DNA of 6,540 bases from a virus (lineage: Duplodnaviria; Heunggongvirae; Uroviricota; Caudoviricetes), in the IMG/VR virus record IMGVR_UViG_2711768000_000006, one strand, 5' to 3'. Of the stretch, positions 1-6,540 are shown one piece after another. Positions within the stretch are counted from its first letter, which is position 1. Each line of letters starts with the position of its first letter. Made by a program: the position numbers and the translations under genes. The notes beneath the pieces are model-generated. The model was not told the origin of the DNA and searched no databases. It was given only the letters and a program-made list of their open reading frames with translations.

Positions 1-107
1 CTCTCGTCTGGGGAATATCTCCCCGGCAGCCTTCAGGGAAAAATATCATCAGATGGCTGCTTAAAAAAAGAACAAATGGTAGTGTCCGCTATTGCCAGTA
101 CACCTCA
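1..107. repeat. Left arm of a perfect 107-bp inverted repeat (partner 6434..6540)
   Basis: Bases 1-107 are the exact reverse complement of 6434-6540, compared base by base; identity stops at 108 versus 6433. The arm holds 75 bp of upstream sequence plus the first 32 nt of the ORF starting at 76. Confidence 0.95.
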
Positions 108-2908: not shown

Positions 2909-3289
2909 ATGACCGAGCGCATAGAATTTGTTTTACCTTACCCGCCGACGGTGAACACTTACTGGCGTCGTCGTGGCAGCACATATTTTGTATCAAAAGC
3001 CGGGGAGCGTTATCGCCGGGCAGTGGCGCTTATTGTTCGCCAGCAGCGGCTGAAATTAAGCCTGTCCGGAAGGTTGGCAATAAAAATTATTGCAGAACCA
3101 CCGGATAAGCGCCGCCGTGACCTGGACAATATTCTGAAAGCGCCGCTGGATGCGCTGACGCATGCGGGGTTGCTAATGGACGATGAGCAGTTTGATGAAA
3201 TCAATATCGTTCGTGCTCAGCCAGTATCTGGTGGACGTCTGGGGGTGAAGATTTATCCCATAATGCTTGAAGGGCAGGTCAAAAAATGA
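2909..3289 (+). CDS. rusA: Crossover junction endodeoxyribonuclease RusA (Holliday junction resolvase)
   Basis: 126-aa product with RusA hallmarks: N-terminal LPYPPTVNTYWRRRG, the catalytic-region motif PDKRRRDLDNILKAPLDALTHAG, and C-terminal GGRL. Lies directly upstream of the Q candidate, as in lambdoid prophages. Confidence 0.9.
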   Translation: MTERIEFVLPYPPTVNTYWRRRGSTYFVSKAGERYRRAVALIVRQQRLKLSLSGRLAIKIIAEPPDKRRRDLDNILKAPLDALTHAGLLMDDEQFDEINIVRAQPVSGGRLGVKIYPIMLEGQVKK

Positions 3290-4107
3290 AACTGGAAGAT
3301 TTACCGAAATACTACTCCCCAAAATCCCCCGGCCTGACTGATGCATCGGCCTCAACGTCGAAAGATGCGCTGAGTATCACTGATGTGATGGCCGCGCAGG
3401 GCATGACACAGAATCGGGCTGAGATGGGGGTTTCTGCGTTCCTTGGGAAAATGGGCATTAGTATGAATGACAGAGAGCGGGCAACAGAATTGCTGACAGA
3501 ATATGCACTCAGTCGGTGTGATCGCGTGGCGGCGTTAAGAAAACTCCCGGCAGAAATAAAACCGGCAGTGATGCGTATTATGGCTTCGTATGCGTTTGAA
3601 GATTATGCCCGTAGCGCGGCGAGCAAAAAACAGTGCCCCTGCTGTCACGGAAAAAAATTTATTGAAAGCGAGGTTTTTACAAACAAGATCCAGTATCCGG
3701 ATGGTAAGCCGCCGGTATGGGCAAAGTGTACGAAAGGTGTGTATCCGTCTTACTGGGAAGAATGGAAAAAAGTCAGGGAGGTGGTAAAAGTTGCCTGTCC
3801 GGAGTGTGGCGGAAAGGGTGAGGTTTCCACCGCCTGTAAGGATTGCCGTGGGCGTGGTGTCGCCATTCATCGTGAAGAGTCGGTAAAACGTGGTATGCCT
3901 GTTATCAGAGACTGCCAGCGTTGTGGTGGTCGTGGCTATGAAAGACTACCATCAACGGAGGCATTTAATGCTATATGCGAGGTGACAAACCAGATAACAC
4001 GCGCGTCATGGGAAAAAACAGTTAAGAAATTTTATGATGCGCTGGTGACCCGGTTTGATATTGAAGAAGCATGGGCTGAGCGGCAGTTAAAAAAGGTAAC
4101 TAGGTAA
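3286..4107 (+). CDS. Putative late-gene antiterminator Q with DnaJ-like zinc-finger repeats
   Basis: 273-aa ORF whose ATG overlaps the rusA stop (ATGA). Contains CPCCHGKK plus three CxxCxGxG motifs (CPECGGKG, CKDCRGRG, CQRCGGRG). Sits between rusA and a pR'-like promoter and terminator, the canonical Q position. The assignment is positional plus motif-based, not a confirmed match. Confidence 0.6.
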   Translation: MKLEDLPKYYSPKSPGLTDASASTSKDALSITDVMAAQGMTQNRAEMGVSAFLGKMGISMNDRERATELLTEYALSRCDRVAALRKLPAEIKPAVMRIMASYAFEDYARSAASKKQCPCCHGKKFIESEVFTNKIQYPDGKPPVWAKCTKGVYPSYWEEWKKVREVVKVACPECGGKGEVSTACKDCRGRGVAIHREESVKRGMPVIRDCQRCGGRGYERLPSTEAFNAICEVTNQITRASWEKTVKKFYDALVTRFDIEEAWAERQLKKVTR

Positions 4108-4112
4108 CAAGG

Positions 4113-4140
4113 TTGATTTTTCCGGAATCTGTGGTAAATT
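4113..4140 (+). promoter_or_regulatory. pR'-like late promoter (-35 TTGATT 4113-4118, extended -10 TGgTAAATT 4132-4140)
   Basis: 16-bp spacer. The -10 TAAATT with an upstream TG resembles the lambda pR' -10. Begins 6 bp after the Q stop. Confidence 0.5.
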
Positions 4141-4187
4141 CGTTATAACGATGGGCGTTTTATGCCTGACGTTAGAAGAGTTTCTAC

Positions 4188-4212
4188 AACCCGCCGCCGA
4201 GCGGGTTTTTTA
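4188..4212 (+). terminator. tR'-like rho-independent terminator ending a roughly 65-nt leader RNA
   Basis: Stem AACCCGC (4188-4194), loop CGCCGA, stem GCGGGTT, then a T-run (4206-4211). Lies about 50-65 nt downstream of the predicted pR' start, analogous to the short terminated late leader of lambdoid phages. Confidence 0.55.
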
Positions 4213-4331
4213 TGACTGAAATCGCGTCAGTACAGTAAACGCGCTGGTGGCGGTGAATACCTGTCTTTCAGCTTGCTGGCTTTTTCGACAAGAGTTATTG
4301 GTGTGTCACGTTAACCGGAAAAGGAAAAGAC

Positions 4332-4679: not shown

Positions 4680-5738
4680 ATGCTTAATACTGTAAAAATA
4701 TCCAGTTGTGAGTTAATCAACGCCGACTGCCTGGAATTTATCCGGTCGTTACCCGAAAATTCTGTTGACCTGATAGTCACGGACCCGCCGTACTTTAAAG
4801 TGAAGCCTGAGGGCTGGGATAACCAGTGGAAGGGCGACGATGATTACCTGAAGTGGCTGGACCAGTGTCTGGCGCAGTTCTGGCGGGTGCTGAAACCTGC
4901 CGGAAGTCTTTACCTGTTCTGTGGTCATCGCCTGGCATCTGATATCGAAATCATGATGCGTGAACGCTTCAGTGTGCTGAACCATATTATCTGGGCGAAG
5001 CCGTCCGGACGCTGGAACGGATGCAACAAGGAAAGCCTGCGGGCGTATTTCCCCGCCACAGAGCGCATTCTGTTCGCGGAACATTATCAGGGGCCGTATC
5101 GTCCGAAAGATGCCGGGTATGCGGCGAAGGGCAGTGCACTGAAACAGCATGTGATGGCCCCGCTGATTTCTTACTTTCGTGATGCGCGAGCTGCCCTGGG
5201 GATAACGGCAAAACAGATTGCAGATGCCACAGGAAAGAAAAACATGGTGTCGCACTGGTTCAGTGCCGGTCAGTGGCAGTTGCCGAATGAAAGCGATTAT
5301 CTGAAATTACAGGCGCTGTTTGCCCGGGTGGCAGAAGAGAAGCATCGGCGTGGTGAACTGGAAAAGCTCCACCACCAGCTGGTGGATACGTATACCTCAC
5401 TGAACCGGCAGTATGCGGAGCTGCTGAGTGAATATAAACATCTGCGGCGGTATTTTGGCGTGACGGTGCAGGTGCCGTATACCGATGTGTGGACGCATAA
5501 ACCGGTGCAGTTCTATCCCGGGAAACATCCGTGCGAAAAACCGGCAGAAATGCTGCAGCAGATAATCAGCGCTAGCAGTCGTCCGGGTGACCTGATTGCA
5601 GATTTTTTCATGGGGTTGGGTTCGACAGTGAAAGCGGCACTGGCGCTCGGGCGTCGTGCAATTGGCGTTGAGCTGGAGACTGAACGTTTTGAGCAGACGG
5701 TTCGGGAAGTACAGGATTTAGTCAGCCAGAACGGATGA
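4680..5738 (+). CDS. DNA amino-methyltransferase (N6-adenine or N4-cytosine), beta-class motif order, no adjacent restriction enzyme
   Basis: 352-aa ORF with motif IV DLIVTDPPYF near the N-terminus and the AdoMet-binding motif I DFFMGLGST near the C-terminus (motif IV before motif I). The long middle region contains an HTH-like segment (LGITAKQIADATGKK). No cognate endonuclease ORF is present. Confidence 0.85.
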   Translation: MLNTVKISSCELINADCLEFIRSLPENSVDLIVTDPPYFKVKPEGWDNQWKGDDDYLKWLDQCLAQFWRVLKPAGSLYLFCGHRLASDIEIMMRERFSVLNHIIWAKPSGRWNGCNKESLRAYFPATERILFAEHYQGPYRPKDAGYAAKGSALKQHVMAPLISYFRDARAALGITAKQIADATGKKNMVSHWFSAGQWQLPNESDYLKLQALFARVAEEKHRRGELEKLHHQLVDTYTSLNRQYAELLSEYKHLRRYFGVTVQVPYTDVWTHKPVQFYPGKHPCEKPAEMLQQIISASSRPGDLIADFFMGLGSTVKAALALGRRAIGVELETERFEQTVREVQDLVSQNG

Positions 5739-5778
5739 TATTGAAGAATTAATTACGCGTCGTTATTATGCGGCTCCC

Positions 5779-5854
5779 GGCCCTTTAGCTCAGTGGTGAG
5801 AGCGAGCGACTCATAATCGCCAGGTCGCTGGTTCAAATCCAGCAAGGGCCACCA
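5779..5854 (+). tRNA. tRNA-Ile2 (anticodon CAT, lysidine type), ileX/ileZ-like, with encoded CCA
   Basis: Manual cloverleaf: acceptor GGCCCTT/AAGGGCC, D-arm GCTC..GAGC, anticodon loop CTCATAA, T-arm GCTGG TTCAAAT CCAGC, discriminator A, CCA. Closely resembles E. coli ileX as recalled. By anticodon alone it could also be scored as Met. Confidence 0.8.
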
Positions 5855-5861
5855 TCACATA

Positions 5862-5938
5862 CCGCCATTAGCTCATCAGGAAAGAGCGCCAGCCTTCGAA
5901 GCTGGCTGCGCGGGGTTCAAGTCCCCGATGGCGGTCCA
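5862..5938 (+). tRNA. tRNA-Arg (anticodon TCG), with encoded CCA
   Basis: Manual cloverleaf: acceptor CCGCCAT/ATGGCGG (7 perfect pairs), D-arm GCTC..GAGC, anticodon stem CCAGC/GCTGG with loop CTTCGAA, T-arm CGGGG TTCAAGT CCCCG, discriminator T, CCA. The C1-G72 start is unusual but it folds cleanly. Confidence 0.7.
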
Positions 5939-5951
5939 TTATCTGCATCAT

Positions 5952-6009
5952 GCGTTGTTAGCTCAGCCGGACAGAGCAATTGCCTTCTAAGCAATCGGTC
6001 ACTGGTTCG
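5952..6009 (+). pseudogene. 3'-truncated tRNA-Arg (anticodon TCT), argU/argO-like; breaks in the T-loop
   Basis: Acceptor 5' strand GCGTTGT, D-arm GCTC..GAGC, anticodon stem ATTGC/GCAAT with loop CTTCTAA, and the T-stem 5' strand ACTGG followed by TTCG are intact. The expected T-stem 3' strand and acceptor 3' strand (ACAACGC) are absent and replaced by CTTTTGCGGGCCTTTTTTTT. Confidence 0.6.
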
Positions 6010-6227
6010 CTTTTGCGGGCCTTTTTTTTAAATGTCTCACAATTCAGACGGTTGACAGTTGTCTGTTTTGCGGGGAGTTTGTTAAAAGAAACTGGCATGG
6101 TGAATCCCCCTGTGCGGAGGGGCAATCAGCGAGTAGGTATATGGGATAATCGCGGATTCAGGTGCTGGTACTGAATTCACCGGGAGGCACCCGGCATCAT
6201 GCAATGGCACATAGCGCCACTCTCCAG

Positions 6228-6250
6228 CCCTCTCCGGAGGGGCTTTTCTG
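6228..6250 (+). terminator. Weak terminator-like hairpin (CCCTC / TCCG / GAGGG followed by GCTTTTCT)
   Basis: 5-bp GC-rich stem with tetraloop and a short T-rich tail, in an otherwise ORF-free region. Weak. Confidence 0.25.
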
Positions 6251-6433
6251 TGCCGGATACATCACAGTTTCTGGAACCTTAGGTACTACAGTATCAGTCA
6301 GGGTGCTATATTTTCAGATGTGATGAAAGCCTGTCAGCAGGCAGGGCGTATCGGAAATGACCCAGTAGAGAAAACGTTGACTCAGATACCGGTGCTGAGT
6401 TACCGGGAAACCGGCATCACATGACCGCTATCC

Positions 6434-6540
6434 TGAGGTGTACTGGCAATAGCGGACACTACCATTTGTTCTTTTTTTAAGCAGCCATCTGATGATATTT
6501 TTCCCTGAAGGCTGCCGGGGAGATATTCCCCAGACGAGAG
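6434..6540. repeat. Right arm of the perfect 107-bp inverted repeat (partner 1..107)
   Basis: Exact reverse complement of 1-107. Read on the minus strand it reproduces the upstream region and first 32 nt of the ORF at 76, then continues as only a 21-codon ORF (complement 6400-6465). Confidence 0.95.

Follow-up and report, generated by a model that had tools for sequence, protein, structure and literature searches.

The roughly 420 bp of seemingly empty DNA that follow a group of phage tRNA genes are very probably part of a standard accessory-RNA module in the late region of a Stx-phage-like lambdoid prophage, and the module carries small RNA (sRNA) genes. The whole stretch analysed, referred to as the window, is 6,540 nt long and is a fragment of a Shigella sonnei lambdoid prophage that lies between two inverted copies of IS600. 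In the proposed arrangement, a tRNA operon composed of the promoter pT, ileZ, argN, argO and a terminator would stand downstream of Q and a DNA methyltransferase gene, followed by tandem sRNA genes of the STnc100 family and then, in intact relatives, by a nanS-p-type SASA esterase gene and the lysis genes. Homology to PasD2 suggests that a weak sigma-70 promoter would drive each sRNA unit separately and that a Rho-independent terminator would end it. The sRNA would act in trans through Hfq-dependent base-pairing, with a 5' domain that is structured and conserved and, before the terminator, a variable single-stranded segment as the presumed seed. The stx genes of 933W form an inserted cassette that separates the tRNA terminator from the sRNA promoter. 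Three lesions specific to the lineage or to the isolate are present in this module, namely IS600 in the second sRNA unit, IS600 at the left edge, and the loss of 39 nt, by which argO is inactivated. In annotation, the DNA that follows the phage tRNAs deserves to be treated as an sRNA gene and not as vacant cargo space.

The first sRNA unit, unit a (6066-6255, plus strand), matched Rfam model RF02076 in a cmscan search with 123.6 bits (cut-off 47) and E = 1.3e-27, over model positions 1-206 of 206. Membership in STnc100 was defined by a score at or above the curated gathering score of 47 over the entire model, and 6066-6255 is, as judged from its sequence, a member of the family. The suggestion in the original prediction that this DNA may encode a small RNA was thus borne out by the Rfam covariance search. 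A weak hairpin reported at 6228-6250 was also present; it spans 6226-6244, is followed by a T-run, and was recognized by a terminator scan and the Rfam alignment as the terminator hairpin and U-tract of unit a (6226-6249, plus strand). The 5' arm of this terminator is one base shorter than that of the E. coli O121 copy, which leaves a one-base bulge in the stem; in the four S. sonnei genome loci with both IS600 copies, the terminator sequence is the same as in the window. The likely transcript starts near 6095 and stops near 6247-6249, for a length of about 155 nt. Published PCR primers for STnc_100 match exactly at 6096-6115 and 6170-6189.

The structure of unit a was evaluated in a set of eight units, consisting of unit a of the window, units b and c of S. 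sonnei, the copies of 933W, Stx2_PV11-59, Stx2a_WGPS6 and PhiR12_2, and PasD2. The RNAalifold consensus contained 33 pairs, 9 of them with compensatory changes, and recovered the Rfam architecture; the closing helix, the three internal hairpins and the terminator of unit a are kept across the relatives. The MFE of 6095-6255 was no better than that of shuffled sequence (z = -0.61), and this measure was dropped as uninformative. The structural support therefore comes from the covariance model and covariation, not from stability.

The promoter of unit a was located by homology to PasD2. The mapped 5' end of PasD2 lies at GCATGGTGAATC, behind TTGACT, a 17-nt spacer and TTAAAA. By analogy, unit a would start at about 6095, with a putative promoter at 6059-6087 (plus strand) in which the -35 element TTGTCT (6059-6064) and the -10 element TTAAAA (6082-6087) are 17 nt apart. 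A consensus scanner made no call on this TTAAAA promoter. The original prediction had pointed to a perfect TTGACA at 6052-6057, and this hexamer does exist. As the -35 element of the sRNA it was rejected because it stands 24 nt from the conserved TTAAAA, compared with the 17-nt spacing of PasD2, and TTGTCT appears to be the better candidate. A sigma-54 promoter, considered on account of a remark on RpoN binding for Salmonella, was also set aside when the sequence was read and no match to GG-N10-GC was seen.

The 5' end of unit a could instead come from processing of a longer late transcript. A broader version of this idea holds that the units are structured segments within the long late transcript antiterminated by Q, where they would act in cis on the esterase and lysis genes as leaders or signals for processing, with the short RNAs as by-products. 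The region does form part of the pR' late operon, with Q before it and the lysis genes after it, the putative promoter is weak, and PasA of EPEC was reportedly cleaved from a longer transcript. However, in EPEC cells that have not been induced, PasD1 and PasD2 are abundant, are stabilised by Hfq and have a defined 5' end at a conserved GCATGG (PMC8550237), EcOnc27 is Hfq-bound in EHEC, and each unit has its own terminator together with a conserved upstream block of TTGACA...TTAAAA. As a full account of the locus this is unlikely, while a role of the region within the late transcript during induction is possible.

The preferred reading, that unit a is an sRNA gene with a promoter of its own, raises the question of its seed. 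In the alignment of the eight units, variability was highest in the segment that follows the closing helix and precedes the terminator, and since the PasD seed is reported to lie there, the same segment may well be the seed of unit a. This segment is unlike those of PasD and of the 933W copy, and targets are therefore not transferable from these RNAs to unit a. In particular, the PasD seed UGUGAG and the probe target CCTTGTGAGTTCTGGCTGCGCATG were absent from 6095-6255 when the sequence was read. The hallmark of PasD, UGUGAG just upstream of the terminator, is missing from unit a, and only the 5' domain aligns; the PasD targets therefore cannot be assumed for unit a.

The original prediction held that the 420 bp occupy the place where Stx phages carry stx, and this did not survive the alignment with 933W. 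The 1332-nt stx2AB cassette of 933W maps between the bases equivalent to 6030 and 6033, and DNA homologous to the sRNA region stands downstream of stxB in that phage. When the 933W DNA from the end of argO to the STnc100 promoter was compared with the window by blastn, only 6004-6030, containing the terminator, and 6033-6065, the block upstream of the sRNA, were matched. No stx remnant was found in the window by blastn with 933W DNA or by tblastn with Stx2A and Stx2B. Since blastn matched only the two flanks of the cassette and tblastn found nothing, the stx2 cassette site (6030-6033) is unoccupied, and it comes down to the 2 nt at 6031-6032, with the tRNA terminator on one side and the sRNA promoter on the other. 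A Stx-converting phage would have stxA and stxB between argO and STnc100 or the esterase; stx2AB is absent from this position in the window.

The related claim of an empty or decayed cargo site was correct in that stx2 is absent and its site unoccupied, and incorrect with regard to decay, as no decay remnant was seen and the 420 bp are sRNA DNA. A rival explanation built on decay would be that a stx operon or another moron was deleted, leaving a functionless scar of about 420 bp. The locus does show decay, in the 39-nt deletion at 6006/6007 and the IS600 at 6434, and Stx phages carry stx immediately beside the equivalent DNA. Nevertheless, a scar is extremely improbable given that no stx-derived sequence was detected by blastn or tblastn, that the flanks of the 933W cassette are continuous in the window, that Stx phages keep the homologous 420-bp DNA downstream of stxB, and that the DNA matches a curated RNA family. 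Furthermore, the tRNA-sRNA block (5740-6433) is intact, with at least 97% identity, in 616 of 5,426 complete E. coli genomes. The original prediction had named beforehand such an intact occurrence downstream of tRNAs in ordinary prophages as an outcome that would speak against it, and this was the outcome.

An sRNA module at this position is also what the relatives display. The order in 933W is argO, terminator, stx2A, stx2B, STnc100 (207.7 bits, starting 75 nt past stxB), an oppositely oriented AsxR, and the esterase gene L0105, and the order in Stx2a_WGPS6 is the same. STnc100 was found at the equivalent position in O121 (two copies, 137 and 161 bits), Stx2a_WGPS6, Stx2_PV11-59, P27, the non-Stx phage PhiR12_2 and S. 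sonnei genomes, and sRNA homologues were present in 284 phage records, mostly of Stx2-converting phages. Unit a shares this synteny: the tRNA/stx block precedes it, and the genes for the SASA esterase and the holin come after it. The sRNA DNA is thus common to Stx and non-Stx phages and lies downstream of the stx site.

Upstream of unit a, the tRNA island begins with a putative promoter, pT (5741-5769, plus strand), identified in a consensus scan as TTGAAG, a 17-nt spacer and TATTAT. In the 933W record, the position upstream of ileZ is annotated as "pT; putative tRNA promoter". The first tRNA (5779-5854, plus strand) has a CAT anticodon and is of the ileZ type, as found by ARAGORN and by Rfam (tRNA, 72.5 bits); its counterpart is annotated as tRNA-Ile/ileZ in O121 and 933W, and it presumably reads AUA as tRNA-Ile2 after lysidine modification. 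The second (5862-5938, plus strand) is a tRNA-Arg(TCG) of the argN type, supported by ARAGORN, Rfam (tRNA, 58 bits) and the annotation of relatives. The third is a pseudogene, a 5' fragment of an argO-type tRNA-Arg(TCT) (5952-6006, plus strand), which was not called by ARAGORN, as only two tRNAs were detected in the window by that program. The Rfam tRNA model gave 22.5 bits on 5959-6024, under the cut-off of 29. The series of CAT, TCG and TCT tRNAs in that order, as originally described, accordingly holds for two intact genes and fails at the third, which is cut.

Comparison with E. coli O121 and six S. sonnei loci showed that a 39-nt deletion at 6006/6007, flanked by the near-repeats TGGTTCG and TGGCTCG, removed the 3' half of the T-arm and the 3' acceptor strand of argO. 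The Rho-independent terminator of the tRNA operon (6004-6029, plus strand) was detected in a terminator scan with 7 pairs and a T8 run; its 5' arm was rebuilt from tRNA sequence by the deletion, and the resulting terminator contains two G.U pairs. The 933W record also has a terminator annotated at the matching site behind argO. The deletion junction was absent from 5,426 complete E. coli genomes, GTDB species representatives and JGI metagenome contigs, and the deletion is therefore either peculiar to this assembly or an artefact of sequencing or assembly. The likeness of the island to the Stx-phage tRNA cluster, as proposed in the original prediction, was confirmed: it is homologous to ileZ-argN-argO, with 94% identity to 933W, VT2-Sakai and many Stx2 phages over 5740-6009, and promoter and terminator are included in this homology.

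Downstream of unit a lies a second, diverged STnc100-like unit, unit b (6294-6433, plus strand), with an extended -10 element, TGcTATATT, at 6304-6312, and it is truncated by IS600. It scored 21.8 bits in cmscan in the window (match 6294-6482), and the intact O121 unit b scored 30.1 bits with E = 1.7e-4; both are below the gathering score of 47. Unit b is best described as STnc100-like and is not filed as a member of the family. The window retains unit a whole and about three quarters of unit b (about 6320-6433). Alleles of unit b that are intact with a terminator were found in the S. sonnei locus L005 and in phage PhiR5_2. Two related motifs noticed in the original prediction at 6178-6201 and 6401-6423 are real and belong to homologous parts of the two paralogous sRNA units a and b, namely a hairpin and a strand of the closing helix.

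Small protein genes were considered as another explanation of this DNA, the candidates being a 55-aa antisense ORF (5961-6125) and a 34-aa ORF (6320-6421). They matched PHROG 27294 and 23557 with E = 3.8e-28 and E = 2e-19, respectively, and "hypothetical protein" is annotated over these stretches in PhiR5_2 and some other records. On the other hand, both PHROG families are of unknown function and no Pfam match was obtained, the O121 counterpart of the antisense ORF is marked as an incomplete pseudogene in RefSeq, and the ORF of unit b has 55 aa with ATG in PhiR5_2 versus 34 aa with GTG in the window. Where the S. sonnei and PhiR5_2 alleles of unit b differ, the changes cluster in a hairpin and keep its pairing (U-A to C-G; U.G to U-A; C-G to U.G), but they alter 4 of 8 codons non-conservatively. 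Moreover, the unit b DNA aligns to the STnc100 covariance model. Protein genes are very unlikely on this evidence, and the hypothetical-protein calls over this DNA, as well as PHROG 27294 and 23557, are probably over-predictions. The original statement that no ORF of 60 aa or more exists was nearly right; a 64-aa ORF with a TTG start is found at 5980-6174, and it had no Pfam or PHROG match.

With unit b taken as an sRNA unit, the locus becomes a tandem array. In E. coli O121, the interval before the esterase gene contains three tandem units of 136.9, 30.1 and 161 bits. A tentative proposal, possible though doubtful, is that unit b (about 175 nt when intact, with its extended -10 and its own terminator) represents an unrecognised third subfamily of STnc100/PasD, and that up to three paralogous sRNA genes form an array at the stx-proximal site, with a shared 5' scaffold and differing seeds. 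If true, this would be a cassette system diversifying the targets of phage sRNAs, one member of which was disabled by IS600 in S. sonnei. S. sonnei keeps one intact STnc100 copy on each side of the IS600 that inactivated the middle paralogue.

The remainder of the window has the usual lambdoid gene order in its ORFs and RNA genes. It begins with nin-like small ORFs, followed by a hok/sok toxin-antitoxin pair, in which the sok RNA lies at 947-1122 (Rfam, 112 bits) and the Hok ORF at 1060-1272, and by genes for a DUF968 protein (1850-2908), RusA (2909-3289), the 273-aa Q antiterminator (3286-4107), a 65-aa ORF, and a 352-aa N6/N4 DNA methyltransferase (4680-5738), after which the tRNAs appear. 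The order of Q, methyltransferase and tRNAs had been stated correctly, as the ORFs and the annotation of relatives show.

The two ends of the window belong to IS600. Positions 1-107 (plus strand) are the right-end terminus of IS600, on the IRR side with C-terminal transposase codons, and form the left boundary of the prophage; positions 6434-6540 (minus strand) are a second, inverted terminus inserted into unit b. The two segments constitute a perfect inverted repeat, and these 107 nt show 100% identity to annotated ends of IS600 or IS3-family transposases in more than 3,000 E. coli records. Similarity to other prophages begins at base 108 and ends at base 6433. The terminal inverted repeat of a novel transposon was considered and rejected, as 1-107 and 6434-6540 are the same IS600 end found twice. 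The length of the repeat, 107 nt, may reflect an assembly k-mer of 107, which is a guess. The region flagged in the original prediction ends at 6433, the final base before the IS600 end.

The insertion into unit b was reconstructed from two S. sonnei loci, L004, in which the right-hand IS600 is present, and L005, in which it is absent. The comparison revealed a simple insertion with a 3-bp duplication, at the junction ...CTATCC[TGAGG...CCTCA]TCCTTCCAGG..., and one copy of the target-site duplication, TCC, occupies 6431-6433. Identical terminal sequence, TG...CA ends (TGAGG...CCTCA) and the TCC duplication identify the element as IS600, and it parts the body of unit b from its terminator GGCCCATCCGCTCCGGTGGGCCTTTTT. 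No match to the junction of IS600 and unit b was found in complete E. coli genomes, GTDB representatives or metagenomes; it was located solely through a chimeric ORF (76-306) that starts inside IS600, whose exact-protein look-up led to complete S. sonnei chromosomes. The whole window is present in four S. sonnei loci retrieved from complete genomes, where both IS600 junctions are identical to those of the window, and it differs from them by two substitutions (1314 and 4144) and one 39-nt indel. In those genomes a full IS600 flanks the region on each side, in opposite orientations, and the window is therefore a contig that ends within this repeat at both sides. To the right of the second IS600, the complete S. 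sonnei genomes resume with the remaining part of unit b, followed by a third copy of STnc100 and by genes for a nanS-p-type SASA esterase and a holin.

The tRNA island, the STnc100/EcOnc27/PasD family and its position by stx and the nanS-p esterase are already published and curated. STnc100 was described 75 nt downstream of stx2 in STEC, and RT-PCR detected it in preparations of vesicles (PMC12370729). The Hfq-bound sRNA EcOnc27/sRNA103 overlaps with STnc100, and overexpression of this sRNA raised fimZ and espA transcripts (PMC12711010). PasD1 and PasD2 of EPEC were found to be Hfq-dependent by northern blot and to be RIL-seq hubs, with mapped ends (PMC8550237). A shared ancestry of PasD1/PasD2 and STnc100 was proposed, with PasD located upstream of an esterase (bioRxiv 10.64898/2026.05.13.724894). 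Slight novelty is confined to unit b, the middle unit, which has no name, scores under the threshold and may form a branch of its own within STnc100/PasD.

Among the known systems, the IS600-fragmented lambdoid prophages of S. sonnei, such as the Ss046 locus encoding Q3Z0Y9, are closest to the window: in four of the complete S. sonnei genome loci retrieved, both IS600 junctions are the same. Neither the SNPs at 1314 and 4144 nor the 39-nt argO deletion of the window are seen in those genomes. The ileZ-argN-argO island of the Stx phages 933W and VT2-Sakai agrees with that of the window in gene order, putative promoter, terminator and place downstream of Q/pR'. The two differ in that argO is cut by the 39-nt deletion in the window, and in that no stx follows the island there. 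The window has a 352-aa methyltransferase gene after Q and before the tRNAs, whereas 933W is without it and P27 has only a 153-nt fragment.

PasD1 and PasD2 of EPEC E2348/69, homologues of EcOnc13, lie downstream of Q and directly upstream of a SASA esterase gene, as here. They have in common with unit a the 5' start GCAUGGUGAAUCC, the promoter layout, the architecture and the Rho-independent terminator, while PasD2 reaches only 41.4 bits on the STnc100 model. The STnc100 RNA downstream of stx2B (EcOnc27 in Sakai, sRNA103 in EDL933) differs from unit a in several respects. Identity between unit a and the Stx2-phage copies is about 70-77%, the internal variable loop is shorter in unit a, and its segment from closing helix to terminator is unlike that of 933W. 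The antisense neighbour AsxR is present in 933W and P27 and absent beside unit a, and unit a follows the tRNA terminator directly, whereas stx intervenes in 933W. Unit a and the Stx2-phage STnc100 RNAs share the same helices with compensatory changes, the conserved upstream block, the 5' GCAUGGUGAAUCCCCC start, and the position between the tRNA/stx block and the SASA esterase gene.

The two ends of the window form a perfect inverted repeat of 107 nt, with one arm at 1-107 and the other at 6434-6540, and both arms are the same IS600 end, on the C-terminal side of the transposase. The window is thus a contig with an IS600 copy at each boundary, the two in inverted orientation, and the equal length of the arms suggests, as our guess, an assembly-graph overlap (k = 107). 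Beyond the left IS600, the S. sonnei genome locus (L004 8379-8832) has a DUF977 gene on the strand opposite to the one this gene occupies in the related E. coli O121 prophage, and an IS1 is found near it. The reversed gene and the nearby IS1 argue that the left IS600 marks an inversion or rearrangement and not a simple insertion. An ORF of 76 aa on the plus strand (76-306) starts within the IS600 end and continues into prophage DNA. This chimera has been deposited for Shigella sonnei as a ‘prophage protein’ (Q3Z0Y9_SHISS) and is present on 832 contigs; it offers a handy lineage marker but probably does not represent a genuine gene.

Only two substitutions separate the window from four complete S. 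sonnei genomes, one at 1314, within the structured region downstream of hok, and one at 4144, within the pR'/qut region that comes right after Q, where the window has T and the others C. Furthermore, the near-repeats TGGTTCG and TGGCTCG flank a private 39-nt deletion at 6006/6007, which truncates argO and regenerates the terminator hairpin. Since this deletion was not found in six S. sonnei genome loci, 5,426 E. coli genomes, GTDB representatives or metagenomes, it may have arisen as an error of sequencing or assembly.

A hok/sok type I toxin-antitoxin module occupies 947-1272, in which a sok RNA match of 112.4 bits accompanies a Hok/Gef ORF of 70 aa (1060-1272), annotated in relatives as hokD. 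Rfam also gives a weak IsrK-like match at 1281-1362 (25.8 bits, where the cut-off is 50), which follows closely on hok and precedes the Q-containing block. This match ends in a strong terminator and may simply be the 3' end of the hok mRNA. Two short ORFs, at 5961-6125 (minus strand) and 6320-6421 (plus strand), match PHROG 27294 and 23557, both of unknown function, and overlap the tRNA terminator, the sRNA promoter and the diverged STnc100-like unit b; these PHROGs probably stem from over-prediction of ORFs on sRNA DNA.

The unoccupied stx site of the window reads AAATGTCTCAC. In the Stx2 phage 933W, the pentamer ATCTG stands on either flank of the stx2AB cassette (L002 2910-2916 and 4240-4246), and this may be a trace of cassette acquisition. 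Both 933W (L002 4485-4537) and P27 (L013 2733-2785) carry the anti-sRNA gene AsxR on the minus strand, antisense and immediately after STnc100, whereas no AsxR match was obtained in the window, O121 or the S. sonnei loci.

Directly after Q, a short pR'-to-tR' unit (4108-4214) has a promoter-like TTGATT...TAAATT, after which come a hairpin rich in GC and a T-run (about 4190-4212). The sole Rfam match within 4108-4214 was Trp_leader, at chance level. A short terminated late-promoter RNA has been reported for Stx phages; the unit could be the source of such an RNA, and the predicted transcript would be its analog.
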